Below, piece by piece: positions 1 through 8,627 of a DNA stretch of 15,617 nucleotides. The notes under the pieces were generated by a model. The model had not been told where the DNA came from, made no database searches, and worked only from the letters and a program-made list of their open reading frames with translations. Position 1 is the first letter of the stretch; every line of letters starts with the position of its first letter. Both the position numbers and the translations under genes were made by a program. This DNA is from a virus (taxonomy: Duplodnaviria; Heunggongvirae; Uroviricota; Caudoviricetes): IMG/VR virus record IMGVR_UViG_2698536519_000007, positions 1 to 15,617 of that record. One strand, given 5' to 3'.

Positions 1-285
1 TTTACGCTACGTAATACGGGATAGTTACGATACGCAGCGATAGCGCTAAGTTTTAGTTAAAATCCCCCATCAGCGGGATATGGGGATCTCTGGGAGGTTC
101 AGGTTTTAGCATCGCGATTAATACGACAGACGCTGGTGACGATGATGCCAAGTAGTGGCTCTTCCGAATAAGGTTCCCACTGACCAATTGGCGCGCGATT
201 CGCAATAACATCTCCCTTCGCCCAGTATTGGGAAAAGTAGATACATTCAAACTGTGTACGCTGTTTCGTCTCACAGTTCACGACA

Positions 286-534
286 TTGCTGGCCGATGAG
301 CTGACCATTGGGCCTATCCGGGCTGTCCCGATGGATATTACGCCGAAGTATGTGGGAATTGCCAGCGGATTGATGAACGCCGGTTCCGCTGTCGCCGACA
401 TTATTTCACCTATCGCCTTTGGCATTATTATCGATAAAACAGGCAACTGGAGTTTACCATTCTACGGTTCCGTCGCATTGCTTGTTATTGGTATATTCCT
501 GACGTTCTTCATGCGTCCAGATAAGTCATTGTAA
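286..534 (+). pseudogene. C-terminal remnant of an MFS-type transporter (hydrophobic TM-like segments); upstream frame is closed by stops
   Basis: ORF 286-534 translates to hydrophobic helices (e.g. IISPIAFGIIIDKTGNWSLPFYGSVALLVIGIFLTFF) typical of an MFS C-terminus. The in-frame sequence upstream hits a stop at 238-240 and the ORF begins with TTG; neighbouring frames carry short fragments, so this is a truncated or frameshifted gene. Family assignment is from recalled pattern, not a search. Confidence 0.45.
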
Positions 535-550
535 AAGTCGAATTCAGGGC

Positions 551-877
551 TGAAGTGGTCTACTGAATTTGGCCATCTGAACAGGGTGATATGCTCACCT
601 TAGAACAACACAGGTGCACCAATGAAAAGAAGAAATTTCAGTCCTGAATTCAAACGTGAATCCGCTCAGTTGGTTGTCGATCAAAATTACACTGTTTCTG
701 ACGCTGCTAAGGCTATGGATGTTGGTCTTTCCACGATGACGGAATGGTTCAAACAACTGCGTGATGAGCGTCAGGGCAAACGCCAAAAGCCTTCCTGATA
801 ACACCGGAACAAATCGAACTACGTGAGCTAAAGAAAAAGCTACAACGAATTGAAATGGAAACGAAATATTAAAAAAC
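551..877 (+). mobile_element. IS3-family (IS911-like) element, left segment with terminal inverted repeat
   Basis: Sequence from 551 (TGAAGTGGTCTACTGAATTTGGCCATCTGAACAGGGTGATATG) matches the IS911-type left IR as I recall it, followed by an orfA-like reading frame. The segment ends in ATATTAAAAAA at 867-877, where unrelated sequence begins. Confidence 0.7.
622..798 (+). pseudogene. IS3-family orfA (HTH transposase subunit), frameshifted
   Basis: ATG at 622 gives [53 protein letters not shown]..., an IS911 OrfA-like N-terminus, stopping at 796-798. The expected continuation ([21 protein letters not shown]) lies in another frame at 799-868, so there is at least one indel. Confidence 0.7.
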
Positions 878-2455
878 TTTCCATGTGTGAAACCCCGTCC
901 CGAGTCTCAGAAACTCCCCGGTAAAGCTGGCAGTCTAATATAGCGAAGGAAGCAGTCGTCGGCCTTTTGGTGGTATGACCCTTAAAAAACATGGTTCAGG
1001 GGCTGTGGCGGATCCGACGGTGGTAGCTTGATCCCGTTCAGGAAGGTGATTTCTCCGTCGTCTCCTCCTTCGTTCATTAAAAATGAGCAAGGAGATTTAT
1101 ATGAAAAAATCCTCCCGAATGTCTATTGTCCATTCTCATGCTGCGGGCGTTGATATTGGGGCCAAATTTCACGTTGTGGCCGTACCGCCTGATGCTGACG
1201 CCGAGCCAATAAGGACTTTTCAAAGTTTCACCGGCGACCTTCATCGTATGTCTGACTGGCTCAAAACCTGTCATATTACAACCGTCGCCATGGAGTCCAC
1301 CGGCGTTTACTGGTTGCCTGCTTTTGAGATCCTTGAAGCAGCGGGTTTTAATATGATACTCGTTAATGTCAGTGCCGCAAAAAATGTTCCCGGTCGCAAG
1401 ACTGATGTCAACGACGCACAGTGGTTGCAGAGACGACATGCATTTGGTCTTCTCCGGGCCAGTTTCAGACCTGTACACGACATTTCAGTCCTCAGGTCTT
1501 ATCTGAGGCAACGAGAACGCTTGACTGAATACCGGGCTGCGCATATTCAGCATATGCAGAAAGCGCTGATGCAGATGAATGTGCAATTGCATCATGCCGT
1601 ATCGGATATCACTGGCGTCACCGGTCTCTCGATCGTCAGAGCTATTGTCAGCGGTGAGCCCGATCCTTCAGTATTGATCCAGTACCGTGATGTGAGATGT
1701 AAGAAGACGCCAGAAGTACTTCAGCAGGCACTGACAGGGAACTGGCAACCTGAGCATCTTTTTGCACTTGAGCAGTCGGTGGCATTTTTCTATTTTTACC
1801 AGGAAAAGATCCGTGAACGTGACGATCAAATCGAAATTCATTAATACAACTCAGCACCGGGACTGAAAATCCTGAAGGAGTATTACCCTGCGCCAGACAT
1901 CGTACAAAGCAACCCAATCAGCTTTCCTTGATGTCAGACCGTTACTCTGGAAAATTACCACGGCAGATCTGACACAAATACATGGGGTTGGGCCTTATCT
2001 GGCACTAAAATTCGTTGCCGAACGCGGTACTGACATGAATCGCTGGCCTGATGCGAGCCATTTTACCTCGTGGCTATTTTGTCCACGGGAAATAAGATCT
2101 CCGGTGGAAAAGTGTTGTCCTCGAAAACGAGACGTTCATCCAGTTGAATTGCTGCTGCACTCAGGCTGGCAGCCACAACGATTGGTCGGAGCGATACTGC
2201 GTTGGGTGCTTTTTATCGTCGATTATCATCCCGTATAGGTAAAGCAAAAGCAGTCACTGCAACGGCAAGAAAACTGGCAACACTGTTCTACAATGCCTTG
2301 AAATATGGTAAAAAATATGTCGACAATTGTGCTGATTACTATGAAGAGCGTTACCGTAGTTGCGTACTCAATGGACTTAAACGAAGAGTAAAATCACTGG
2401 GTTATTCTCTCCAGCAAGACCCTGAATTATGAGAGTGAACCAGGAGTTTCTCAGG
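878..2455 (+). mobile_element. IS110-family insertion sequence (DEDD recombinase type) inserted into the IS911-like element; boundaries approximate
   Basis: IS911-like sequence stops at 877 and resumes at about 2456 (AAGGCTACCGCGCTCTTGATGTCAGA, encoding KATALLMSD, the OrfA C-terminus). The intervening about 1.58 kb has a roughly 220 bp non-coding left end, a recombinase with IS110-family signatures and a very short right end, which is the typical IS110-group layout. No terminal inverted repeats, as expected for this family. Confidence 0.6.
1101..2432 (+). pseudogene. IS110-family DEDD recombinase/transposase, disrupted by stops and frameshifts
   Basis: N-terminal frame 1083/1101-1844 carries the RuvC-like DEDD signatures (GVDIGAKFHVVAV, VAMESTGVYW, KTDVNDAQ). 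The C-terminal HhH/Transposase_20-like motifs are split across frames: GVGPYLALKFVAERGTDMNRWPDASHFTSWL (about 1990-2090), GNKISGGKVLSSKTRR (about 2085-2140) and GAFYRRLSSRIGKAKAVTATARKLATLFYNALKYG (2202-2432). There is an in-frame stop at 1842-1844 and another near 2146. Likely start is ATG 1101, with AAGGAG 6 nt upstream. Confidence 0.7.
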
Positions 2456-3289
<834 letters not shown>

Positions 3290-3319
3290 GTAAGCGACTC
3301 GTCAGAACCGTATTGATAT

Positions 3320-4891
3320 TTACTGAGAGCTCAGATCAACTTTCCAGGGCAACAGATCGCGTACCCGGTTTGCCGGCCAGTCCTGGATATGTTCAATGAC
3401 GTAACGCAGCCACTTTTCTGGCTCCACATTGTTCAGACGGCATGTGCCGATCAGCGAGTACAACACCGCCGCATGTTCACCACCGCTGTTGGAACCCGCG
3501 AACATCCAGTTTTTCCGGCCTACGGCCACTCCCCGTAAGGCGTTCTCTGCGATGTTGTTGTCGATTTCCACCCAGCCATTACTGCAGTACACGTTCAGTG
3601 CATCCCACTGTTTCAGCAGGTATGCGAACGCTTTTGCCGTATCTGAGTGACGCGACAGTGTTTTCATCTGTTGCTGTATCCAGTCATACAGTGACTGCAT
3701 CAGTGGCGCGGCTCTGGCTTTTCTTGCCGCCAGACGCTGTTCTGCTGAACAGCCCCGGACCTCTGCCTCGATGGCATACAGTTCACCGATACGCTGCAGG
3801 GCTTCCGTGGTGATGTAGGTGGGCGCTCTTGCATGCACATCGTGGATTTTTCTCCGGGCATGAGCCATACACGCGGCTTCCGTTATTCTGCCGGATTCGT
3901 ATAACGCCCGGTAACCACCGTAAGCATCGGCCTGAAGCACACCGCTGTAACCGGCCAGGTGATTTTGTGGATGGATACCTTTCCGGTCCGGACTGTACGC
4001 GAACCAGACCGCCGGGGGCATCTGTGAACCGGCGTTACGGTCATCACGGACGTAGACCCACAGCCGGGCTGTCCGGGTTTTACCGCTGCCCGGCTCCTGG
4101 ACCGGGACGGGGATATCATCAGCATGGACTTTACCGGGCATCAGCACATACTGGCGCAGGACGTCATACAGCGGCTCCAGCAGTTCAGCAACAGCACCTG
4201 TCCAGCGCCCCAGTGTGGCACGGCTCAGCTCCACTCCCTGACGACGGTATATTTCTGACTGGCGGTATAACGGCAGATGGTCTGCATATTTCCCGGTGAC
4301 AACATGGGCCAGAAGCCCCGCTCCGGCATAACTGCGTGCAATGGGTTTTGAAGGTACTGGTGCCTGCACGATATGGTCGCACCGGCAACAGGCCTGTTTC
4401 GGACGTTGTGTTTCGATAACCTTAAAGGCGCTGCTGATAAGCTCCAGTTGCTCTGACACATCACATCCCAGAGAACTGAGTTCACCACCACAGGCAGGAC
4501 AGCATTCCTCTTCCGGCCGGATAACCCGGGTTTCACGGGGAAGTGAGGCCGGTAACGGTTTACGGGCTGAAGACTGGCGCAGGGCGGATGGCAGTACCGG
4601 GTCATATTGCTCACCCAGCGTTTCCGCCATTTCTTCCTGAAGTGCGCTGATTCGCTCCTGTGCTTCCTGTATCTGCCGTTCGGTTTTTGCACGAAGTTTT
4701 TCTGAGCTTTTACCGAACTGCATACGTTGCAGTTTCGCAACCAGCGCCTTCAGCCGGTTGATTTCGGAAGCATAAGCCGCCACCCGCTGTGAGAGCAGGC
4801 GGTTGTATTCAGCCATCTGGCGGATGGTGTCCTGTTGCGTCTGCAACAGTGCCCGCAGGCGGGCGTTCTCATGAGCAAGTGAGGTGTCCAT
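3320..4891 (-). CDS. tnpC: IS66-family transposase TnpC
   Basis: 523 aa ORF with N-terminal coiled-coil/leucine-zipper-like region, a Cys-rich zinc-finger-like segment (CCPACGGEL...CCRCDH) and a DDE-type core, as I recall for IS66 TnpC. ATG start with GAGG-containing RBS upstream. Confidence 0.9.
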
Positions 4892-4910
4892 ATCCTCACT
4901 TTACAACGGG

Positions 4911-5258
4911 TTATATGCGGATTCCAGCGCGTTCCGTTCGTTTCGGGTGCTTCCAGTTGATACCTTCAAGAAGCATGGATAACTGAGCCGGAGTAAGGTG
5001 CACCTTGCCGTCACGGGTGACTGGCCAGACGAAGCGGCCCCGCTCCAGGCGTTTGGTGAAGAGGCACAGTCCGTCACTGTCAGCCCACAACACTTTTATC
5101 TGGTCACCCCGGCGTCCGCGGAAGATGAACAGGTGTCCGGAGAACGGGTCATCCTTCAGGACGTTCTGAACTTTTGATGCCAGGCCGTTAAAGCCATTTC
5201 GCATATCGGTGATACCTGCAACCAGCCAGATACGCGAACCTGCAGGGAGAGATATCAT
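4911..5258 (-). CDS. tnpB: IS66-family TnpB (Orf2)
   Basis: 115 aa ORF (MISLPAGSRIWLVAGITDMRNGFNGLA...) placed between tnpA and tnpC. Its ATG overlaps the tnpA stop (TGATG), the usual IS66 arrangement. Confidence 0.85.
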   Translation of the reverse strand: MISLPAGSRIWLVAGITDMRNGFNGLASKVQNVLKDDPFSGHLFIFRGRRGDQIKVLWADSDGLCLFTKRLERGRFVWPVTRDGKVHLTPAQLSMLLEGINWKHPKRTERAGIRI

Positions 5259-5935
5259 CAGTGGCTGCTCCCTTTTATTTCGCGGATAAGTGTCTGTAAT
5301 AACGCCGGCGTCAGTTTACCTTTAAGCCTGAGAGTTCCGGCCGGCAGAACCAGCTCACAACACAGACTGTCGGACGGTGTATTTATCTGCTCTGGTTCCT
5401 GTGCGGGGGCCGGGATTTTATTATCCGGCTCCGGCGTTAACGTCACGGGAAGCAGTGCCGGCATATTTTTTCCGGAAGGCAGCAGGCCACCTTTCCGGTA
5501 TTGATGGCGCCAGTTGAAGAGCAGGTTATCGTTGATTCCGTTTTCCCGGGCGATCTGCGCCACACAGGCTCCGGGCTGCAGTGACTGCTCCACTAAGGCG
5601 ATTTTAAACTCATAAGGGAAGTTGGGCCGCCGGGGACGTTTTTTTACCACGGGGGCTTCGGATATAACGGTGCTTTCAGGACGTACGACTGGTACCGTGG
5701 AAAATTGTCCGTAAAGGCAGGCATCAAGTTCCTGCTCCGACATGCCTGCGGGCAAAGGCCACGAAAGGCCAGCTCTCCGAAAGCGCACGAACATACTACA
5801 AACTGTTGATTTTGGTACACCCAGGCGACGCCCGGCCACAACCCGGGGTAAATGTTCTTCAAAGTGAAGACGTAAAGCTTCAGTGATCCAGGTCCGGTGT
5901 TTCATACGATAGTGTCCATTAAAAATGATGGACAT
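5258..5935 (-). CDS. tnpA: IS66-family TnpA (Orf1) with an N-terminal extension of about 95 aa; true start uncertain (ATG 5935, or internal GTG near 5649)
   Basis: The C-terminal about 127 aa (RPRRPNFPYEFKIALVEQSLQPGACVAQIARENGINDNLLFNWRHQYRK...LLPVTLTPEP...) has the IS66 TnpA layout. The frame stays open upstream to ATG 5935 and encodes an extra HTH-like segment. No ATG sits at the canonical start position. Confidence 0.6.
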   Translation of the reverse strand: MSIIFNGHYRMKHRTWITEALRLHFEEHLPRVVAGRRLGVPKSTVCSMFVRFRRAGLSWPLPAGMSEQELDACLYGQFSTVPVVRPESTVISEAPVVKKRPRRPNFPYEFKIALVEQSLQPGACVAQIARENGINDNLLFNWRHQYRKGGLLPSGKNMPALLPVTLTPEPDNKIPAPAQEPEQINTPSDSLCCELVLPAGTLRLKGKLTPALLQTLIREIKGSSH

Positions 5936-6015
5936 TATTTTTGTAGAGCCGGAGGAAACAGACCAGACGGTTTAAATGAGCCGGTTACGCAATATCTGCA
6001 GGTCGTCTGACACAG

Positions 6016-6336
6016 ATGATAAGTGTTCTGAAGCCGGTGTTAACCCGTAATGCTGCCGGAGAAATGACGGAAGAATGGGTGTCATGCGGGAAAATTCATG
6101 CGGATATCCGTGGCAGGAGCAGCCGGGAGCGGATGCAGTCCGGTGCGGAAATGGCGCAGGCGGAAATCCGCATCTGGGTGCGCGGTCAGTCCGGCCGGGA
6201 AATCACGGCAGCGTCACGACTTCATGTGCTGAGTGGTCCATGGCGTGACCGGATCCTGAACGTTGTCGGGCTGCCCGTGCCGGATGCGACCGGCGGGCGT
6301 CTGGAAATTCTCTGTCGGCTGGGAGGGGAAAAATGA
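6016..6336 (+). CDS. Phage head-tail adaptor / head-tail joining protein (HK97-type family), probably 5'-truncated
   Basis: 106 aa from the first ATG. The in-frame upstream sequence (AISAGRLTQ, 5989-6015) continues the conserved N-terminal motif of this family but has no start codon before it reaches the IS66 terminus at 5988. Stop overlaps the next start (ATGA). Confidence 0.7.
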   Translation: MISVLKPVLTRNAAGEMTEEWVSCGKIHADIRGRSSRERMQSGAEMAQAEIRIWVRGQSGREITAASRLHVLSGPWRDRILNVVGLPVPDATGGRLEILCRLGGEK

Positions 6337-6779
6337 TCGAAACCCTGCTGGATTTTTCGGGGCTGGAGGACATCAGCCGCGATTTGCAGCTTCTGAGTGG
6401 TGCGGAAAATAACCGGGTGCTGCGTGAGGCAACCCGTGCGGGTGCGAATGTGCTGAAAGAAGAAGTGGTGTCACGGGCACCGGTACGCAGGGGAAAACTG
6501 CGCCGCAATGTGGTGGTCCTTTCCCGGCGCTCCCGCGATGGCGGGATGGAATCCGGTGTGCATATCCGGGGTGTTAATCCGGACACCGGTAACAGCGATA
6601 ACACCATGAAGGCGGATAACCCGCGCAATGCTTTCTACTGGCGGTTTGTGGAAATGGGGACCGTGAATATGCCACCGCACCCGTTTGTGCGCCCGGCATT
6701 TGATGTGCGCAGTGAACAGGCGGCACAGGTGGCGATTGCGCGGATGAACCGGGCCATTGATGAGGTACTGAGACGATGA
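6333..6779 (+). CDS. Phage tail-proximal structural protein, HK97 gp10-like family
   Basis: 148 aa ORF, translationally coupled on both sides by ATGA overlaps, located between the head-tail adaptor and tail completion genes. Family assignment is from position and recalled similarity. Confidence 0.65.
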   Translation: MIETLLDFSGLEDISRDLQLLSGAENNRVLREATRAGANVLKEEVVSRAPVRRGKLRRNVVVLSRRSRDGGMESGVHIRGVNPDTGNSDNTMKADNPRNAFYWRFVEMGTVNMPPHPFVRPAFDVRSEQAAQVAIARMNRAIDEVLRR

Positions 6780-7120
6780 CGGAGGCGGATTTGTATCCTC
6801 ATCTGGCGCATCTTGCCGGCGGGCAGGTGTACCCGTATGTGGTCCCCCTGCTGGATGGCAGGCCGTCGGTGGCGCTTCCGTGGGTGGTTTTCAGCCTGAT
6901 TTCATCGGTGTCTGCGGACGTGATGGGCGGGCAGGCGGAGTCCTCAGTGTCGGTGCAGATCGACGTTTATGCCGGGACTGTGACGCAGGCGCGTCAGATA
7001 CGTCAGGACGCCCGTGAAGCCATAATGCTGCTGGCCCCGGGATCCGTCAGTGAAATGCAGGACTATATTCCGGAAAACCGCTGTTACCGTGCAACCCTGG
7101 AGTTTCAGGTCACGGTGTGA
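6776..7120 (+). CDS. Phage tail completion / tail terminator-like protein
   Basis: 114 aa ORF immediately upstream of the major tail protein gene, start overlapping the previous stop. Function inferred from conserved gene order in siphovirus tail modules. Confidence 0.6.
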   Translation: MTEADLYPHLAHLAGGQVYPYVVPLLDGRPSVALPWVVFSLISSVSADVMGGQAESSVSVQIDVYAGTVTQARQIRQDAREAIMLLAPGSVSEMQDYIPENRCYRATLEFQVTV

Positions 7121-7149
7121 CTTTTTCTTTTTTTCTACAAAACCCATAC

Positions 7150-7172
7150 CCCGCCGCGTGCGGGTTTTTTAT
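7150..7172 (+). terminator. Intrinsic terminator-like hairpin plus T-tract just upstream of the major tail protein gene
   Basis: CCCGC (7150-7154), 5-nt loop, GCGGG (7160-7164), followed by TTTTTTATT (7165-7173). The RBS AGGAGG and ATG 7187 follow immediately. Confidence 0.4.
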
Positions 7173-7186
7173 TATCAGGAGGCAGA

Positions 7187-7903
7187 ATGTCTGCTTTGTA
7201 TGAACGCTCACAGCTGACGCAGGTGATGATTTCATCTGCCCCGGCGACTGCTGAAACTATGGATAAGGCGGAATATCTGCGCCTGGACTGCACCATCAAG
7301 GAAGTCCAGTTCACCGCCGGTCAGAAACAGGATATTGATGTGACCACGCTCTGCTCCACAGAGCAGGAGAACATCAACGGTCTGGGGGCGTCGTCTGAGA
7401 TTTCCATGTCGGGTAATTTTTATCTGAATCAGGCCCAGAACGCCCTGCGTGATGCCTATGACAATGACGCGTTGTATGCGTTTAAGGTGCTGTTTCCGTC
7501 CGGTAAGGGCTTTAAGTTCCTGGCGGAAGTGCGTCAGCACACCTGGTCATCCGGTACCAACGGCGTGGTGGCAGCAACGTTTTCACTGCGTATGAAAGGC
7601 AAACCGGTGTCCTTTGTGGTACCGCTGGCGTTTGTGAAAAATCTGGATAAAACACTTACCGTGAATACAGGTGCGCTGCTGACAATGTCAGTCAGTGCCA
7701 ACGGGGGAACGCCGCCGTATAAATACGCCTGGAAGAAGGATGGTCAGCCGGTTGACGGGCAGACGACAGACACCTTCAGTAAGCCAGGTGCGCAGTCCGC
7801 TGATGCGGGGAAATATACCTGCGTGGTGACCGATTCGGCAGAGAAAGCACAGAGTGTGACGTCTGTTGAATGCACCGTGACAGTGAGCGCAGCCGCCGGA
7901 TAA
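7187..7903 (+). CDS. Major tail (tube) protein with C-terminal Ig-like domain
   Basis: 238 aa, strong RBS (CAGGAGG) before ATG 7187. The C-terminal about 85 aa (PPYKYAWKKDGQPV...AGKYTCVVTDS...) looks like an immunoglobulin-like fold, as often appended to siphovirus major tail proteins. Position is upstream of the G/GT chaperone. Confidence 0.85.
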   Translation: MSALYERSQLTQVMISSAPATAETMDKAEYLRLDCTIKEVQFTAGQKQDIDVTTLCSTEQENINGLGASSEISMSGNFYLNQAQNALRDAYDNDALYAFKVLFPSGKGFKFLAEVRQHTWSSGTNGVVAATFSLRMKGKPVSFVVPLAFVKNLDKTLTVNTGALLTMSVSANGGTPPYKYAWKKDGQPVDGQTTDTFSKPGAQSADAGKYTCVVTDSAEKAQSVTSVECTVTVSAAAG

Positions 7904-7917
7904 GGGGATGGGTCATC

Positions 7918-8292
7918 ATGAAAAAGGATCTGAAAACGCTGGCGCTGGCCAGACTGTCAGGGTTTCGTCATAAAACGGTGAAGGTGCCGGAATGGGGTAA
8001 TGTCAGCGTGGTGCTGCGGGAGCCTTCGGCAGAGGCCTGGTATCTGTGGCAGGAAGTGCTCAATGGTGATGGAGAGGATGACGATACCCTGTCGGTGGTG
8101 GCGAAAACCCGCCGTAACCTGGAAGCGGATGTGACGCTGTTCTGCGATGTCCTGTGTGATACTGACCTGCAACGGGTGTTCACTCCGGACGACCGTGAGC
8201 AGGTGCTGGCCGTCTATGGTCCGGTACATGCCCGGTTGCTGCGTCAGGCACTGGAACTGATCGCTGATGCAGAGTCGGCCAGAAAAAAGTAG
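7918..8292 (+). CDS. G: Tail assembly chaperone (lambda gpG analogue)
   Basis: ATG 7918 (MKKDLKTL...) with AAGGGGA RBS about 10 nt upstream. The ORF track's 7870 start is an upstream alternative-codon extension. Ends TAG 8290-8292 right after the slippery heptamer. Confidence 0.8.
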   Translation: MKKDLKTLALARLSGFRHKTVKVPEWGNVSVVLREPSAEAWYLWQEVLNGDGEDDDTLSVVAKTRRNLEADVTLFCDVLCDTDLQRVFTPDDREQVLAVYGPVHARLLRQALELIADAESARKK

Positions 8293-8597
8293 CCCGCCCG
8301 GAAATTCGCTTTCTGATGCGACTTGCGCTCCGTCTGGGGCGCACCTTATCCGAACTGCGGCACAGCCTGAGTGCGAGCGAGGCGATGATGTGGATGGAGT
8401 TTGACAGGGTGTCCCCGCTGGGTGATGAGCGCGGGGATATCCGTAATGCACAGATCGTGAAAGCGGTTTTCGGGGCACAGGGGATGAATGTTGCACTGAA
8501 GGACGCCATGCTCTGCTGGGGCGAGGATGAGGATAAGCCGGAGGTGGATCCGTTTGCGGCGCTGGAAGACGCGCTGAGCTTTGCAGCACAGTCATGA
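7918..8597 (+). CDS. Tail assembly chaperone frameshift fusion product (lambda gpGT analogue) via -1 frameshift at 8283-8289
   Basis: The -1 frame is open from 8268 to 8597 and encodes a lambda gpT-like segment (EAMMWMEFDRVSPLGDERGDIRNAQIVKAVF...). It can only be expressed by a shift from the G frame; the canonical A AAA AAG site sits at the G 3' end. Confidence 0.65.
8283..8289 (+). promoter_or_regulatory. Programmed -1 ribosomal frameshift slippery heptamer A AAA AAG
   Basis: Sequence AGA AAA AAG TAG in the G frame. The heptamer A_AAA_AAG matches the classic X XXY YYZ motif and lies in the overlap window between the G and T frames. Confidence 0.6.
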
Positions 8598-8605
8598 ATG
8601 ATGAG

Positions 8606-8627
8606 AACCGCTGAGGCGGTTTTTTTA
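8606..8627 (+). terminator. Rho-independent terminator between GT and tape measure gene
   Basis: AACCGC (8606-8611), loop TGAG, GCGGTT (8616-8621), then a T7 run (8621-8627), in the 47-bp intergenic gap after the GT stop (8595-8597). Confidence 0.55.

Follow-up and report, generated by a model that had tools for sequence, protein, structure and literature searches.

The window, by which we mean the whole stretch of 15,617 nucleotides that was analysed, comprises a segment of the leuX-tRNA genomic island (1..3289, plus strand), a complete copy of the IS66-family insertion sequence ISCro1 (3290..5988, minus strand), a phage head-closure gene now lacking its ATG (5989..6336, plus strand) and a lambdoid tail module (6333..15617, plus strand). 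Without a single mismatch, it equals the terminal 15.6 kb of the draft contig CYEY01000010.1 (GCA_001284105.1; 126,869 bp), which ends 2 nt beyond the window, inside gpJ.

ISCro1 was first named in Citrobacter rodentium and is widespread in E. coli. The full 2,699 bp of the window copy are 100% identical to numerous E. coli elements annotated as ISCro1, which bears out the assignment to the IS66 family made in the first-pass annotation. It carries the three genes of the family, all on the minus strand: tnpA (5258-5935; Pfam HTH_Tnp_1), tnpB (4911-5258; TnpB_IS66) and tnpC (3320-4891; LZ_Tnp_IS66, zf-IS66 and the transposase domain DDE_Tnp_IS66). The termini are imperfect inverted repeats, GTAAGCGACTCGTCAGAACCGT and ACGGTTTAAATGAGCCGGTTAC, at 3290-3311 and 5967-5988, with the starting motifs GTAAGCG and GTAACCG. 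In the tnpA-tnpB-tnpC layout, the terminal repeats and the entire sequence, the window copy is the same as ISCro1 elsewhere. E. coli genomes with any match to ISCro1 have a median of 2 and a maximum of 34, a count that includes partial matches and matches to related IS66 elements; given this median, the element is often present in several copies in E. coli.

The left flank, window positions 1-3289, recurs at 99.9% identity in ATCC 8739, elppa6 and about 60 other closed genomes. Nine further contigs (L016-L022, L024 and L025) match it with 0 mismatches over 3,289 nt, and L023 with one. In ATCC 8739, elppa6 and others, the upstream part of the island holds leuX, an integrase gene, nanX, nanY and ythA, and the gene order of the island runs from the integrase through nanX, nanY and ythA to an adhesin-E family gene, an IS110 remnant and an IS3-family remnant. 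The adhesin-E family gene lies at 99-401 (minus strand) in the window, the IS110-family remnant at about 1083-1844, with an MFS fragment listed between the two, and the remnant of an IS3-family, IS911-like orfB at about 2455-3289, where it breaks off 33 bp short of its right end. Looking up a lineage-specific adhesin-E allele retrieved uninterrupted islands only, with the empty site and no junction.

The sequence that abuts ISCro1 on the left is the 3' part of a degraded transposase gene, which the RefSeq annotation of the relatives describes as a frameshifted, N-terminally truncated IS3-family transposase. It shares about 78% DNA identity with annotated IS911 over 98% of the remnant. As judged from sequence, its membership of the IS3 family is firm and IS911 itself is only a distant relative. 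Matching relatives continue uninterrupted past window position 3289 with TGAAATTGTGACCA(G/T)TTTTTGTTGACCACTACA, 33 bases that are lost in the window, and then carry queD-dpdE or a DUF4432/aldose-epimerase gene; around the empty site, GGAAAAAATC runs directly into TGAAATTG. From their position at the end of the remnant, and from the known ends of IS911, these 33 bases are probably the right inverted repeat of the remnant. The position of ISCro1, 33 bp inside the remnant, explains the earlier remark that the remnant has no right IR; the last 33 bp are present in the relatives and missing here. Independent insertions of ISCro1 were found 25 bp upstream of the island site in BDSF8-3 and about 200 bp downstream of it in 21AR0173, each with a normal target-site duplication (TSD), so that a plain insertion at the island site would be unremarkable.

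More than 1,200 closed genomes hold lambdoid prophages that match the window, from position 5989 onward, at 97-100% identity. In intact prophages, the coding sequence annotated as 'phage head closure protein' reads ATG followed by GCAATATCTGCAGG, and the breakpoint lies between GGAGGAATG and GCAATATCTGCAGG. The window match begins directly after the ATG, at nucleotide 4 of the gene, which is cut 3 nt into its coding sequence (Pfam Phage_HCP); a residual head-closure ORF of 106 amino acids, from an internal ATG at 6016, remains on the plus strand. The first-pass annotation had placed this flank at the extreme 5' end of the first tail-module gene. The position is correct, but the gene is a head-closure or head-tail joining gene and not strictly a tail gene.

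The tail module was assigned from synteny, 97-100% identity to annotated prophages and Pfam matches. Reading along the plus strand, it consists of genes for an HK97-gp10-like protein (6333-6779), tail completion protein gp17 (6776-7120), the major tail protein (7187-7903), chaperones G and T (7918-8292 and 8316-8597), the tape measure protein (8645-11887), M (11880-12221), L (12221-12919), K (12930-13673), I (13670-14251) and J (gpJ, from 14490), the last interrupted by the end of the contig. The module keeps the conserved lambdoid order, with head closure first, followed by gp10-like, tail completion, major tail, G/T, tape measure and M-L-K-I-J. From the head-closure gene to gpJ it is syntenic with, and 97-100% identical to, that of the lambdoid prophages of EPEC/EHEC-type E. 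coli, which combine an HK97-like head with a lambda-like tail (e.g. S1-IND-01-A). A single SNP specific to the window was detected in the tail genes, at 13049, and it is synonymous. In the intact prophages, head-tail connector, portal, major capsid and terminase genes lie upstream of the head-closure gene. In the window, by contrast, the head-closure gene has no start codon and nothing phage-derived precedes it: there are no head, terminase or regulatory genes before the tail. With the start codon lost to ISCro1, the prophage is defective and cannot form normal virions, whatever made the join.

Perfect 8-bp direct repeats flank ISCro1 at all 11 independent sites sampled in closed E. coli genomes, where full-length copies were cut out by the window's own ends, GTAAGCGACT...AGCCGGTTAC. 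These TSDs are GTTAGTGT, AATTATGT, CATTAAAA, GGATGTCC, AGCAAAAC, GAATGTCT, GATTCACC, GAACGAAT, CGGGGTTC, CATGATAC and GGTAAAAA. The window copy differs from them in this respect. The 8-mers read directly at the expected TSD positions are AAAAAATC (3282-3289) and GCAATATC (5989-5996), which are the same at 5 of 8 positions, and a TSD is absent. Boundaries of ISCro1 shifted so as to conceal a TSD were considered and rejected, because the ends are fixed by the 11 other copies. The first-pass annotation had stated that the flanking 8-mers differ, and had named identical 8-bp repeats at precisely defined boundaries as the observation that would count against it; at the exact ends, 3290 and 5988, the flanks do differ. 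The absent TSD marks the window copy as something other than a simple insertion and leaves its membership of the IS66 family unaffected.

The two reciprocal half-junctions would read GGAATGGCAATATC/GTAAGCG on the head side and CCGGTTAC/AAAAAATCTGAAATTG on the island side, the latter being the form of a simple island insertion. A search of IMG/VR for GGAATGGCAATATC/GTAAGCGACTCG returned two contigs, L037 and L038. Both carry terS, terL, capsid, portal and connector genes that are 99.2-99.9% identical to those of the S1-IND-01-A prophage. They read from the terminase to the connector genes, then through ATGGCAATATC into the end of ISCro1, which has the same orientation as in the window, and they end after 87 and 124 nt of the element. 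The complementary flank that the first-pass annotation suggested looking for, head sequence joined to the other IS end, was therefore found, in two genomes that may be of another lineage than the window. Since the TSD on the head side of these junctions is GCAATATC, matching the right flank of the window, they show that the prophage insertion was an ordinary event with GCAATATC duplicated and the head genes in place.

The complete arrangement of island, ISCro1 and tail was present in none of 5,426 closed E. coli genomes searched with the whole window. The four half-junctions, submitted as 300-nt queries against the same genomes, were likewise absent, and the near-hits were independent nearby insertions. 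Z1322HEC0009 was considered as a case of ISCro1 next to the tail genes and set aside, as it holds a different insertion, which separates gp17 from the major tail gene and has a TSD of its own. In a one-genome-per-species collection, a degenerate pattern covering the two reciprocal junctions gave only a chance match in Xenorhabdus, and two metagenome scans were empty. The viral contigs contained neither the tail-side junction nor the island junction or its reciprocal; a tail-only pattern occurred in 10 viral contigs, none of them from the two genomes with the head-side junction. The left junction of the island with ISCro1, like its reciprocal, was found in no other sequence among the closed genomes, viral contigs and metagenomes. 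A literature search on the accession numbers found nothing.

Other draft assemblies place the right junction in context. The truncated 106-residue head-closure ORF is indexed in 82 blocks, in which CYEY01000010.1 is the only contig longer than 20 kb. Nine other contigs that were inspected share the junction of ISCro1 with GCAATATC, and all nine break inside the IS, with start points 0, 29, 63, 76 or 111 nt from its end. In several of them the tail genes show just 1-3 SNPs relative to the window. For the assembly GCA_907164175.1, 3 SNPs were counted across 9.7 kb of tail module. L010, one of the nine, has a neighbouring WGS prefix, CYFP01, and likewise stops in the IS. Such starts at 0-111 nt are the pattern of k-mer overlaps that de Bruijn assemblers give at a repeat. 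The right junction between ISCro1 and the tail genes is therefore real and common to a group of closely related isolates, in which ISCro1 would be multi-copy. By comparison with the nine, CYEY01000010.1 is the only assembly with this junction that passes through ISCro1, and it does so without Ns. The contig was presumably assembled from short reads, and ISCro1 is probably multi-copy in the window's own genome as well.

Taken together, these observations make it very probable that each flank derives from an insertion site of its own, irrespective of how they were joined. ISCro1 would have inserted once in the leuX island, where target AAAAAATC lies in the 3' end of the IS911-like element remnant, and once in the prophage, 3 nt into the lambdoid head-closure gene at target GCAATATC; we infer that the island event was a simple insertion. 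Mismatched IS flanks are a textbook sign of recombination between IS copies and are also a textbook product of repeat assembly from short reads, which cannot span a multi-copy repeat of 2.7 kb. Scaffolding and gap closing can consequently pair the wrong flanks. The combination of the left flank of one insertion with the right flank of another arises equally by deletion, inversion and mis-scaffolding, so that the window by itself does not separate these causes. An assembly artefact is as likely an origin of the join as a real rearrangement; the former we regard as somewhat probable, and recombination between ISCro1 copies, in whatever form, as less probable. A mis-join across multi-copy ISCro1 is the best explanation, one that we favour with restraint. 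The contig would link the left flank of the island insertion to the right flank of the prophage insertion via the identical 2.7-kb IS, the wrong pair having been connected across the repeat during scaffolding and gap closing, and the genome would still hold the head genes beside one ISCro1 and the rest of the island beside another. This explanation is preferred because the window comes from a draft contig, nine assemblies are broken at the IS, the simple prophage insertion exists elsewhere, TSDs flank all 11 sampled copies and the geometry of the alternative is awkward. The window resembles known chimeric contigs across multi-copy repeats in that it is draft sequence containing a 2.7-kb IS at which nine other assemblies stop, and in that its flanks are adjacent in no closed relative examined; it differs from them in having no Ns and no visible seam. 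Against the mis-join, assemblers usually stop at multi-copy repeats, and a read-through free of Ns is what a genuine junction at an IS present only once would give.

Hybrid IS copies produced by deletions or inversions through IS-IS recombination are known for IS1, IS5, IS629 and ISCro1-rich genomes. Like them, the window has one intact IS whose left flank belongs to one insertion site and whose right flank belongs to a second, and a partner half-junction with matching TSD exists, here in other genomes; unlike them, its linkage rests on one draft contig, and the geometry in relatives opposes a simple deletion. Of the forms that such recombination could take, a large inversion or translocation between inverted ISCro1 copies, or between copies on different replicons, is unlikely, although it is viable at any distance between the prophage and leuX, which a deletion is not. 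In that case the head genes would persist at another place, where a second hybrid ISCro1 connects them with the remaining part of the leuX island. Hybrid flanks of this kind are exactly as IS-IS recombination gives, and both parental insertions are plausible in view of the head-side junction with its TSD and the ISCro1 insertions near the island site. The frequent multiplicity of ISCro1 in E. coli and its expansion to 24 copies in the C. rodentium genome, which has undergone large rearrangements (PMC3072379), also speak for it. On the other hand, an inversion and two simple insertions give the same four half-junctions in short reads, between which the window does not discriminate; the contig adds only the choice made by the assembler. 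In addition, hybrid flanks occur at none of the 11 sites sampled in closed genomes, and no closed genome has any of the junctions. Less probable still is the model of the first-pass annotation, in which direct ISCro1 copies recombined and deleted the interval from the leuX island to the head-closure gene, including the early and head regions, leaving one hybrid IS. The window does hold hybrid flanks around a single intact IS, the flank orientation fits, the head, terminase and regulatory genes are missing from the contig before the tail, and a single remaining ISCro1 would account for the read-through seen in this assembly only. The model requires, however, a prophage near and downstream of the leuX island, and none of the intact relatives examined lies beside that island: the closest (S1-IND-01-A; 100% over the first 3 kb) is between potC and potB, another, at 99.8%, adjoins a P4-like element beside dsdA and emrY, and a more distant one is upstream of tRNA-Ser and hyaA. 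If the prophage occupied the potC/potB site in the same orientation, the deletion would, on K-12 map positions, presumably remove about 1.3 Mb and with it essential genes. Directly oriented parental sites on one replicon, separated by dispensable DNA alone, are not what the positions in these relatives would give, and other genomes with the same prophage insertion retain the head genes beside the IS. Accordingly, the earlier proposal of deletion or rearrangement by recombination between IS66 copies stands insofar as the element is a hybrid of two unrelated insertion sites; its more specific part, the deletion of the head region, is not supported, given the draft contig end, the nine assemblies broken at the IS, the equal fit of inversion and mis-scaffolding and the location of intact relatives away from leuX. 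A direct attack of the prophage ISCro1 on AAAAAATC in the island, by aberrant or intramolecular transposition that left an adjacent deletion or inversion and no TSD, would dispense with an earlier island copy. It would account for an island junction found nowhere else and for the simple form having been observed for the prophage insertion only. We consider it highly improbable: we found here no evidence of intramolecular replicative transposition by IS66-family elements, all 11 sampled insertions are simple ones with TSDs, and the objections to the deletion concerning distance and viability apply equally.

ISCro1 and the IS66 family are well known already, as are IS copies with hybrid flanks and mis-joins caused by repeats, and the finding is ordinary either way. 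If the junction is real, it adds one more IS-mediated chromosomal rearrangement, of little biological weight. For method, the lesson is that the absence of a TSD in a draft contig is no proof of deletion until the link across the IS has been confirmed. We give a low probability to the combination in which the junction is real and reflects a megabase-scale inversion or translocation through ISCro1, connecting the leuX island to a distant prophage, and in which ISCro1 may also prefer the stretch of ~230 bp at the 3' end of the remnant. With such a preference, the stretch would be an anchor for recurrent recombination in the chromosomes of E. coli. At least three independent ISCro1 insertions fall within these ~230 bp at the 3' end of the IS911-like remnant.

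The prophages related to that of the window are often targets of ISCro1, and in two close relatives the element occupies positions other than the one seen here. In the S1-IND-01-A prophage (locus L035, 6367-9065), ISCro1 lies within nleL, which is located downstream of the genes for the tail fibre; in the Z1322HEC0009 prophage (locus L005, 9197-11895) it has gp17 on one side and the major tail gene on the other. Both copies are flanked by a normal target-site duplication (TSD).

Several independent ISCro1 insertions were also observed at the 3' end of the IS911-like remnant and in its surroundings (window 3264-3289 and beyond). The copies in or near this end comprise L039 1952-4650, L053 3783-6481, L040 1952-4650 and L052 3920-6618, the handles denoting compared loci. 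BDSF8-3 carries ISCro1 25 bp upstream of the window's insertion site with the TSD GAACGAAT, 21AR0173 carries it ~200 bp downstream of that site with the TSD GGTAAAAA, and additional copies are located nearby in WWCOL-315 and 203740. The 3' end of the remnant and its surroundings may form a local hotspot of ISCro1 insertion.

The degenerate pattern representing the reciprocal junction also matched an IS66-type end in Xenorhabdus szentirmaii (NZ_NIBV01000001.1, locus L026, 5219-5248). The flank agrees here by chance, and the match shows that ISCro1-like terminal repeats are present well outside Escherichia.

G and T, the genes for the tail chaperones, are called as separate ORFs (window 7918-8292 and 8316-8597). 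In relatives, the annotation of the second ORF is either tail assembly protein T, with 93 residues, or a DUF4035 protein that is shorter, at 69 residues. These ORF calls and annotations would be consistent with the usual lambda-type G/GT frameshift arrangement. In the last 380 nt of L010 (CYFP01000063.1), a draft contig whose WGS prefix neighbours that of the window's contig, the sequence jumps back from a point downstream of tail gene I to within tail gene L, such that L010 8509-8890 corresponds to window 14434 followed by window 12734-13113. The jump reflects either a second, related prophage or a contig mis-join at a repeat.

In all three intact relatives of the window's prophage, the portal gene is annotated as 'frameshifted' (L001 3875-6459, L002 6080-8664 and L005 5081-7664), which could be a sign not of decay but of a frameshift or fusion that is conserved.

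The adhesin-E family gene (window 99-401, minus strand) has a 2-bp deletion at window 117 compared with ATCC 8739 and elppa6, which alters the C-terminus and yields a 100-residue variant. Precisely this variant is indexed in 642 blocks and hence widespread. Ten contigs that carry it were inspected, and there it accompanies a version of the island in which the IS3 remnant is followed by DUF4432/MFS genes and not by queD-dpd.
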